Below are positions 10,689-19,596 of a stretch of DNA of 64,000 nucleotides, one piece after another (within the stretch, counting starts at the first letter, position 1; every line of letters starts with the position of its first letter). The position numbers were made by a program, and so were the translations under genes. A model generated the notes under the pieces. That model saw only the letters and a list, made by a program, of their open reading frames with translations, did no database searches and had not been told where the DNA came from. Source of the stretch: Escherichia coli (lineage in GTDB: Bacteria > Pseudomonadota > Gammaproteobacteria > Enterobacterales > Enterobacteriaceae); NCBI RefSeq assembly GCF_003790525.1, contig NZ_CP033635.1, one strand, 5' to 3'.

Positions 10689-11459
10689 TTAAATGACTTT
10701 GCGAAGATTTTCAGCAAATGCGGCGATCTGTTCTTCGCCGTCGCCTTCAATCACGATGCGCTGACGCTCGCGCTGTTTCGGCGCGGCAACCTGTTGTTCT
10801 GACCAGGCTGCCTCTGCGTTAAAACCGATATCCGCCGCCGACCATACCTGGACTGGCTTTTTCGCCGCGCCGAGAATGGCTTTCATCGAAGGAATTTGTG
10901 GGGAGTTGATATCAGTGGAAACAGCAACAACCGCAGGCAGCGGAATGCTTAAGGTTTCGGTTTCATCTTCCAGTTCGCGCTCAACGGTGAGGGTATCTGC
11001 CGTCAGGGAGATAATTTTGCTGACGCCGTTAACTGCCGGAATATTGAGGATTTCGCCTACCAGCAAACCAACCTGCTGGGCATAAAGGTCGGAAGAACCA
11101 TCGCCACAGAGGATCAAATCAAAGCCTGCTTTCTGGGCGGCGGCAGCCAGTGCGCTCGCCGTTTGTTGCGGCAGTGCCTGCTCGAACTGGTCATCAATCA
11201 CCACAATCAGTTCATCCGGACCGCGCGATAGCACATCTTTACGCCCTTTGGCGTTGGTCAGGGCTTTTCCGCCCACACTTAAGGCCGTCACCTGCCCCTC
11301 TGCTGCCTGTTGCTTTAGCTGGCAAGCCGCTTCAATAGCGTTGAGATCGTATTGGCTTATTTTGGCATCGGCTTTACTGAAGTCTAACGAACCATCAGCA
11401 TTATTGACCGCAATATCCTGTTCATCAGGCACGCACTTATAGCAAGTAATAATCTTCAT
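10689..11459 (-). CDS. fixA: Electron transfer flavoprotein beta subunit FixA
   Basis: Track ORF trimmed to [18 protein letters not shown]..., 256 aa ETF beta-like. Confidence 0.9.
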
Positions 11460-11553
11460 TGCATCTCCAGAAATCATGAAGGAAACGTCGTTCATATCGG
11501 TGGTGTTAATTACAGATATCACGCCCTTTAATTCGGAAATAAAACTTTAATCA

Positions 11554-11681
11554 CCAATATTGAAAATGTCACACGCAGATAAATCCAACTTTCAATATTG
11601 TTAAGCTCCTCACCAATATTGAAAACATGGCGTAGCAAAAAGAAATTTTCAATATTGTTTTATGGATCACCAATATTGAAA
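11554..11681. promoter_or_regulatory. Divergent cai/fix control region with two CaiF-type operators (inverted half-sites TTCAATATTG / CAATATTGAA separated by 13 bp) plus one extra half-site
   Basis: Half-sites at 11591-11600/11614-11623 and 11648-11657/11671-11680 with exactly 13-bp spacers; additional lone CAATATTGAA at 11554-11563; matches the published description of CaiF sites as inverted repeats separated by 13 bp. Confidence 0.5.
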
Positions 11682-11928
11682 GTCAGATGCTATTTTTTTA
11701 CTCACAATCAAACTCATCACATTGATAAACAATGAATATTTACACAAAAACGCCCTGTTTTTACCCGATAAAAAACTGTGACTAACATCACAGAATGCAG
11801 CCAATTGAATACCCATTATGAGTTAGCCATTAACGCGTCCACGAGGTTAATAATAATTATATTAAATGTTAACAAAAATAAAACAAACGGGAACGCAAAA
11901 TAAATATTCGTTTTCACAGTGGAATTAA

Positions 11929-13446
<1,518 letters not shown>

Positions 13447-19200: not shown

Positions 19201-19596
19201 TTAACGACGCATACTCTTTGACAACATCATCTGCCACTTCTGCTCGCGGTTAAGTTCCGTGAGCGGAACGGCAGGAATACGCGGCGTCTTTCTTACGCCG
19301 ACTAATTTTTCCCGACTGTTATTGCGCAGGCGCGCGTAAATTTGCTCATCGATATCGACCACTTTAACCAGTCGCTGACACTGGCATCCCCGCCCTTCCA
19401 GCTTATTAGGGATCATCTTAACTTCGCAGCTTATTTCTGTGACTTCCGACAGAATATAAGTCAGGGTATTAACCGCCTTGCTGTGTTCAATATCGAAATG
19501 AATAGAGATCTCTCTTGCTATCACCCACCGATTTTCAGCCATCATCCATTCGGCGATTAACAAGTAGAGTGGTTTTTCAACATATCCTTCACACAT
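19201..19596 (-). CDS. caiF: Transcriptional activator of carnitine metabolism CaiF
   Basis: Track ORF trimmed to MCEGYVEKPLYLLIAEWMMAENRWVIAREI..., 131 aa. Confidence 0.9.
   Translation of the reverse strand: MCEGYVEKPLYLLIAEWMMAENRWVIAREISIHFDIEHSKAVNTLTYILSEVTEISCEVKMIPNKLEGRGCQCQRLVKVVDIDEQIYARLRNNSREKLVGVRKTPRIPAVPLTELNREQKWQMMLSKSMRR

Follow-up and report, generated by a model that had tools for sequence, protein, structure and literature searches.

Control of the cai and fix operons by CaiF is a textbook case of a small regulon. The locus analysed here, which lies in a 64-kb stretch of Escherichia coli DNA (the window), raises the question of why the region between the two operons carries, in addition to two complete CaiF operators, a single half-site on the fixA side. 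The fixA–caiT intergenic region is 470 bp long and is 100% identical to that of E. coli SMS-3-5 and 92.8% identical to that of K-12 derivatives. As the original prediction had recognised, it is the cai–fix divergent region, with fixA on the minus strand (start codon at 11459) and caiT on the plus strand (start at 11932). The elements that concern CaiF are the following.

11590–11624, centre 11607: CaiF operator F1, TTTCAATATTG-N13-CAATATTGAAA, the published consensus (PMC12083890, PMC3680233)
11647–11681, centre 11664: CaiF operator F2, TTTCAATATTG-N13-CAATATTGAAA, with 11-nt arms that are 100% complementary and 13 nt apart
11551–11565, plus strand: the lone half-site, here called F0, TCACCAATATTGAAA (fix-sense strand TTTCAATATTGGTGA), identical at 15/15 positions to the right halves of F1 and F2
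19201–19596, minus strand: caiF, the activator gene, encoding 131 amino acids followed by a stop codon

The 8-bp half-site core CAATATTG is palindromic in itself and occurs five times within 11555–11678, with starts at 11555, 11593, 11614, 11650, and 11671, which bears out the palindrome and the count of five given in the original prediction. The 64-kb window contains eight copies as against 1.63 expected, and no shuffled sequence contains eight. The remaining copies (841, 26215, and 56459) are without the TTCA/TGAA flanks. Four of the five copies form F1 and F2, whose centre-to-centre distance is 57 bp, and the predicted match with the published CaiF sites holds. Sites with this consensus go back to Buchet et al. 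1999, as quoted in PMC12083890 and PMC3680233, and the footprints as quoted there name F1 and F2 alone. In the CaiF literature searched, we found no description of a fifth CaiF site. In the comparison of SMS-3-5 with K-12, nearly all of the intergenic divergence falls between F2 and the cai CRP site (window 11690–11800), and the fix-side half of the region is almost identical.

The fifth copy is the lone one. The 11-bp half-site CAATATTGAAA is exact there (11555–11565), with the oriented 10-mer CAATATTGAA at 11555–11564; the copy was thus correctly spotted, and the coordinates first given for it, 11554–11563, are off by one. It was also said to lie unpartnered and about 40 bp nearer to fixA, and the distance from the F1 left half is indeed 38 bp, core start to core start, with F0 on the fixA side. 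At the canonical 13-nt spacing the window has cggaaata, which matches the core at 3/8 positions. The lack of an inverted half-site 13 bp away indicates that F0 is not a complete operator of the F1/F2 type. In its flank F0 resembles a right half: the TCAC inner flank is confined to right halves, and the left halves continue with TT, CT, or CC. The 16-mer ATCACCAATATTGAAA occurs three times in direct repeat, at the lone site and at both right halves, with start-to-start distances of 59 and 57, and TCACCAATATTGAA occurs three times in the 64 kb, all in the intergenic region, where about 2e-5 copies are expected.

Comparison across species bears on whether F0 is a functional element. A CaiT scan of 100,044 species genomes yields 80 loci, of which 55 are Enterobacterales loci with a divergent fixA within 800 bp; together with the window they make up a set of 56 cai–fix intergenic regions from 21 genera. 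The lone site is absent from one of the 56 regions, and its 14-mer TCACCAATATTGAA is exact in 50/55 of the regions that have it (17/20 genera). When the 21 genera are aligned with the lone site as anchor, every column of the site is either invariant or conserved to at least 90%. Within the five-site E. coli clade, 23/25 regions have an exact lone core, as against 15/25 with an exact F1 left half. Within E. coli itself, the 45 bp at 11536–11580 are identical in 5308/5389 genomes, whereas the whole intergenic region is only 90–95% identical in most. The number and arrangement of the other sites differ between lineages, as follows (distances are from the fixA start codon).

Escherichia, Citrobacter, Salmonella, Pseudocitrobacter, Phytobacter, and Intestinirhabdus: lone site at 96 and two operators at 134, 155 and 191, 212
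Pluralibacter, Yokenella, Atlantibacter, Trabulsiella, and two further Enterobacteriaceae: lone site at 96 and one operator at 134, 155
Proteus: lone site at 96 and three operators at 134, 155, at 193, 214, and at 252, 273
Providencia: lone site and two operators, partly degenerate
Edwardsiella, Hafnia, Leminorella, Limnobaculum, and Serratia sp. H1w: one R-type site, the lone site only, with no inverted-repeat operator
Budvicia: two direct R-type copies 27 bp apart and no operator
Entomohabitans: one operator and no recognisable lone site

Where the lone site accompanies one, two, or three operators, the number of half-sites is consequently odd (3, 5, or 7). The lone-only architecture is found in nine species of five genera (L045, L047, and L052, Edwardsiella; L050 and L053, Hafnia; L049, L021, L044, and L051). 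In these genera the site lies 254–339 nt from fixA and 137–152 bp upstream of the cai CRP-like site, and, DNA adjoining the fixA and caiT starts aside, intergenic conservation in the group is found mainly at the cai core promoter and at the lone site together with the blocks that flank it. Judged by this distribution, the lone site is the most widely conserved putative CaiF recognition element, and no decayed leftover.

Several lineages have features of their own. In Leminorella and Limnobaculum (L021, L044/L051), an extra exact TTTCAATATTG lies 28–29 nt upstream of the fixA start codon, where it adjoins the ribosome-binding region of fixA, about 230 bp from the lone site. In Budvicia, two direct copies of AATACCTnnATCACCAATATTGAAA replace the inverted repeat, at 302 and 329 in one locus (L048) and at 270 and 297 in the other (L081). 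Entomohabitans, the sole exception among the 21 genera, has a complete operator (intergenic 140–216), with AAATAAAAAC-TCACC-CGACGTCG at the position of the module described below.

The comparison argues against the two readings offered in the original prediction, of which one was a low-affinity auxiliary site. In its fuller form this reading takes F0 to be a weak auxiliary or cooperative site that is occupied only through CaiF on F1 and stabilises the array. The 38 bp that separate F0 from the F1 left half are near the 36–38 bp between operators, and published work, as quoted, names F1 and F2 only. However, the lone site is present and exact where F1 is absent, its conservation exceeds that of the F1 left half, and its spacing to F1 is flexible (38–40 bp) whereas its spacing to the fix-side blocks is fixed. 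We consider an auxiliary role improbable, and the label of low affinity fits poorly with a site that is the best conserved CaiF element by the counts given above.

The other reading was a decayed third operator. At the partner position, the left half shows 3–6/10 matches in the 55 regions from 20 genera, and at other spacings the best partner reaches 7/10 and does so in only three of the 55 regions; thus none of the 20/20 genera with the lone site has a partner half-site, and the operator-less lineages keep the lone site. The direct-repeat register of the right halves, at 59 and 57 bp, would suit such a functionless relic or a by-product of tandem duplication of a 57–59-bp unit, and the operator number, which ranges from one to three between genera, indicates that duplication has occurred. 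However, no genus retains a relic of a left half, and Tandem Repeats Finder reports no array. As the lone site is common to lineages that include operator-less ones, it appears to be ancestral to the duplication and neither its remnant nor its product. Decay or duplication is therefore a very improbable origin.

The position of F0 is tied to fix. The distance from the lone site to the fixA start codon is 93–99 nt from Escherichia through Proteus and in 3/4 Providencia, with P. heimbachae at 129 nt, whereas the distance to F1 is 38–40 bp and that to the cai CRP site varies from 137 to 303 bp. The fixed spacing on the fix side and the variable distances on the other indicate that the lone site goes with the promoter side of fix rather than with cai or the operator array. 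With a range of 137–303 bp, a constant phase of the lone site relative to the cai promoter is ruled out. The 21-genus alignment further reveals three conserved blocks amid otherwise unalignable DNA. One of them, block C, is the lone site TCACCAATATTGAA itself (11551–11564); the other two are listed below.

11537–11545, minus strand: block B, AAATAAAAC (fix-sense GTTTTATTT), 5 nt from the lone-site TCAC and in the same register in 55/55 regions
11509–11524, minus strand: block A, with the fix-sense invariant RTGnTAnnnnT at 11521–11512, 43–44 nt downstream of the half-site

In block B, alignment columns T56, A58, and A60 are invariant and A54, A55, A57, and C61 are at least 90% conserved. A left half-site would fall where block B lies, and we considered an asymmetric full operator, on which a CaiF dimer would contact the perfect right half and a degenerate left half in block B (CnAAAATA). 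Such a dimer would be centred near −11 of fix and would provide a brake or a second type of control, so that F0 would not be a monomer site. In 41/55 regions, the left position at 13 nt matches TTCAATATTG at 5–6/10 positions, compared with a background mode of 2–3 and a probability of about 0.15 for at least 5, and block B keeps a constant distance from the half-site. As the regions are phylogenetically related, these 41/55 matches amount effectively to one observation. Moreover, the conservation in block B (AATAAAAC, −17 to −10 from the core) runs across the boundary between the putative core and spacer instead of falling on a half-site; an A-rich motif gives such matches by chance, and no lineage has a better left half. 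With block B out of register with a half-site and matches of only 5–6/10, a decayed operator is excluded and an asymmetric operator is a minor rival, which we regard as unlikely. Block B is probably a −10 or initiation-region element.

The offset of block A is constant in 22/22 representatives, with invariant alignment columns A28, T33, A34, C36, and A37. The block begins with ATG or GTG, after which come hydrophobic codons (MVFLL, MLIIY, VISV, MIII*), and in E. coli, though not elsewhere, the open reading frame shares the frame of fixA. We did not adopt the idea that block A encodes a leader or extends FixA at its N terminus: neither frame nor length is constant (4 to more than 21 codons), and a Shine–Dalgarno sequence is lacking. 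Nor did we adopt an extended −10 element, since TGnTA is invariant but lacks the T at −7. A search of the fix leader for known RNA elements returned one noise match, to snR83, at 15.7 bits compared with a gathering score of 75.

The sequence also allows F0 to be placed relative to the promoters and CRP sites of the region.

11572–11544, minus strand: sigma-70-like fix promoter, with −35 GTGACA (11572–11567), N17, and −10 TAAAGT (11549–11544)
11599–11614: CRP-like site TGTTAAGCTCCTCACC inside F1, 8/10 matches to TGTGA-N6-TCACA
11656–11671: CRP-like site TGTTTTATGGATCACC inside F2, 8/10 matches to TGTGA-N6-TCACA
11777–11792, plus strand: perfect CRP site TGTGACTAACATCACA of the cai promoter, followed by −10 CATTAT (11814–11819)

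GTGACA-N17-TAAAGT is the sole minus-strand promoter-like match in 11440–11950, and its 17-bp spacer, TTTTCAATATTGGTGAT, contains the lone half-site. A promoter scan of the region gives 3 matches compared with 3.1 in shuffles; since matches are no commoner than in shuffles, the fix promoter match is weak when taken alone. Nevertheless, GTGAC(A/T) and TAWDGT are conserved in 24/25 regions of the Escherichia/Citrobacter/Salmonella clade (TAWDGT in the variants TAAAGT, TAATGT, TATTGT, TATGGT, and TAAGGT). The spacer is 17 bp in 25/25 regions of the E. coli clade, rather than the sub-optimal 18 bp of the GrlA type, on which activation there depends. Beyond this clade, the hexamers at the −35 and −10 positions are not promoter-like, and 10 nt downstream of the core there is a conserved TWTWAT, which is part of block B. 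At this distance, the half-site would overlap the −35 position in the other clades, and the lack of promoter-like hexamers suggests that clades may differ by about 5 bp in the register of the half-site with respect to RNA polymerase. The lone half-site would lie within the core promoter in either register, in the spacer in E. coli and overlapping the −35 position in the other clades.

Earlier mapping of the two promoters is in line with this placement. Buchet et al. reportedly found in 1998 that the cai and fix starts are 289 bp apart, with CRP site 1 at −41.5 of cai and CRP sites 2 and 3 at −69.5 and −126.5 of fix; in the same work, transcription of cai is said to have required a 50-bp region that overlaps the start of the fix mRNA. 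We take the CRP-like sites inside F1 and F2 to be the published CRP sites 2 and 3, and the published fix start to be window position 11537, in agreement with the start implied by GTGACA-N17-TAAAGT. Mapped onto the window, these spacings put cai +1, counted from CRP site 1, at 11826, 7 nt after CATTAT, and fix +1 at 11537, and the TGTTA-N6-TCACC sequences in F1 and F2 then lie exactly at −69.5 and −126.5 of fix. The reported CRP and start positions are thus internally consistent with the sequence, which supports them. Given this start, the lone half-site is placed at −18 to −28 of fix. The 50-bp region reportedly required for cai is neither explained nor covered by F1 and F2; it is covered by F0 and block B.

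Some further features of these promoters were observed. The CRP-like TGTTA-N6-TCACC lies exactly within the 13-bp spacers of F1 and F2, so that the CaiF and CRP sites are concentric. The CRP site and CATTAT of cai are kept in nearly all genera. A CaiF-like half-site in the cai core promoter was also considered: in some Edwardsiella and Hafnia (L045, L047, and L053), TCAC(G/A)GATTATTGAA lies between the CRP-like site and the cai −10 element, with 8/10 matches to the half-site. It is not conserved elsewhere and was set aside. A weak RpoN and NtrC genomic SELEX peak has been reported in the caiT/fixA spacer at K-12 42,372, about window 11490 (PMC8743547).

Whether the conserved 14-mer is read by CaiF at all deserves attention, since TCAC is also the right half of the CRP-like sites in F1 and F2 and F0 overlaps the core promoter. 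Accordingly, CRP, through TCAC, or RNA polymerase, through a promoter element, could be the reader. However, the lone site has no CRP left half (TAAAA or TAATA compared with TGTGA), it matches the proven CaiF half-sites at 15/15 positions, and the motif is confined to lineages that bear CaiF. A reader other than CaiF is hence a distant prospect. The TCAC next to the lone site is conserved despite there being no CRP left half at that position.

The protein is conserved along with the site. CaiF belongs to Pfam family PF07180, CaiF_GrlA (28.5 bits, cut-off 25), and its sole relative in the PDB is GrlA (4KT5_C, E = 0.001). CaiF orthologues with 44–98% identity are present at every Enterobacterales locus with sufficient flank. 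At the loci of Shewanella, Campylobacter, Ferrimonas, and a few other distant organisms, CaiF was not found, and the DNA upstream of caiT has no recurrent CAATATTG site, only scattered single matches. Residues Y11, N43, Y47, and R75 are invariant in 22/22 aligned CaiF sequences, including those of the lone-only genera. These are the proposed DNA-contact residues, and their alanine substitution lowers CaiF-dependent output (PMC12083890). The invariance of these residues indicates that the half-site specificity of CaiF is probably unchanged. The orthologues also share an invariant GxGCQCQR (residues 68–75) and a conserved C-terminal tail, LNREQKWQ.MLSK, which in Edwardsiella CaiF is preceded by an acidic insertion of 10–20 residues.

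Sites between −35 and −10 elements are more often repressive, and the position of the lone site inside the spacer of the promoter-like match would suit an occluding role for F0. CaiF, perhaps in its effector-free form, would block RNA polymerase at fix and thereby sharpen the off state or limit fix relative to cai. However, the lone site is the only CaiF-type site of the region in five genera, the paralogue GrlA activates from a spacer, and the only role known for CaiF is to activate the two operons (PMC3680233, PMC2131755). These points make repression hardly probable.

On balance, we favour the view that F0 is a real, selected CaiF recognition element, and one that would belong to the fix core promoter rather than to the upstream operator array. 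The best reading of the sequence is a promoter-embedded CaiF site that is apparently undescribed; its occupancy by CaiF, binding of CaiF there as a monomer, and an activating role are what we infer. The proposed mechanism resembles the reported action of GrlA, the second member of the CaiF_GrlA family to be characterised, at the LEE1 P1 spacer. One CaiF protomer would bind TCACCAATATTGAA directly upstream of the fix −10 region, in E. coli inside the 17-bp spacer (about −18 to −28) and in other clades over the −35 position, 10 nt upstream of TWTWAT. From there CaiF would help RNA polymerase directly. F1 (−70) and F2 (−127), together with CRP, would then be clade-specific upstream loading or enhancer sites, which some lineages are missing. 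A bolder proposal, which we put forward only tentatively and hold to be rather less likely than its opposite, is that the module block A-N13–15-AAATAAAAC-N5-TCACCAATATTGAA could be an ancestral and sufficient CaiF response element, served by a single protomer within the fix core promoter, in the manner of GrlA at LEE1, to which F1 and F2 would have been added later as clade-specific amplifiers.

The published model, in which CaiF acts through two operators, probably leaves something out, and it would be incomplete if F0 were the primary CaiF contact. CaiF and the fix promoter are the basis of L-carnitine biosensors (PMC12083890), and the engineering of sensor and promoter should in that case aim at F0. 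If the tripartite module holds, CaiF and GrlA would be small winged-helix activators that act within the −35/−10 region, and there would be an explanation for why cai transcription reportedly needs DNA that overlaps the fix start. If F0 is the primary CaiF contact, CaiF and the virulence regulator GrlA would share an unusual activation from inside the core promoter, with CaiF as a tractable non-pathogenic model. As one regulator at one locus is concerned, the general impact is moderate.

Compared with F1 and F2, F0 has the identical 11-bp half-site and TCAC inner flank, lies in the same intergenic region, and presumably serves the same protein. Unlike them, it is single and has no inverted partner, it lies at about −23 from the fix start rather than at −70 and −127, and it is conserved far beyond the clades that carry F1 and F2. 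A second comparison is with class II activator sites over the −35 position, such as the pho box 10 bp upstream of −10. Outside the E. coli clade, the half-site likewise lies 10 nt upstream of TWTWAT with no −35-like hexamer; in E. coli, by the reported start, F0 lies in the spacer and not over −35. In addition, CaiF is not a response regulator.

A further parallel is GrlA of EHEC and EPEC, which is reported to activate LEE1 P1 from the −35/−10 spacer at a target with no dyad symmetry (PMC4730234, PMC10877973, PMC3130263; Islam et al. 2011 as cited). The promoter TTGACA-TTTAATGATAATGTATTT-TACACA lies upstream of ler in 463 genomes. The two systems differ in that the LEE1 spacer is a sub-optimal 18 bp and that of fix an optimal 17 bp, in that GrlA, unlike CaiF, has no known upstream dimer operators, and in that the action of CaiF at F0 is a prediction. 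In the same register, −25 to −18, TGATAATG of LEE1 and CAATATTG of fix agree at 5/8 positions, a weak likeness that may be due to chance. Both promoters have a −35 element of the form (T/G)TGACA-TTT... followed by an A/T-rich spacer, and in both a regulator of family PF07180 has a target with no dyad partner, reported for GrlA and putative for CaiF, which in fix would lie between −35 and −10 of the predicted E. coli promoter.
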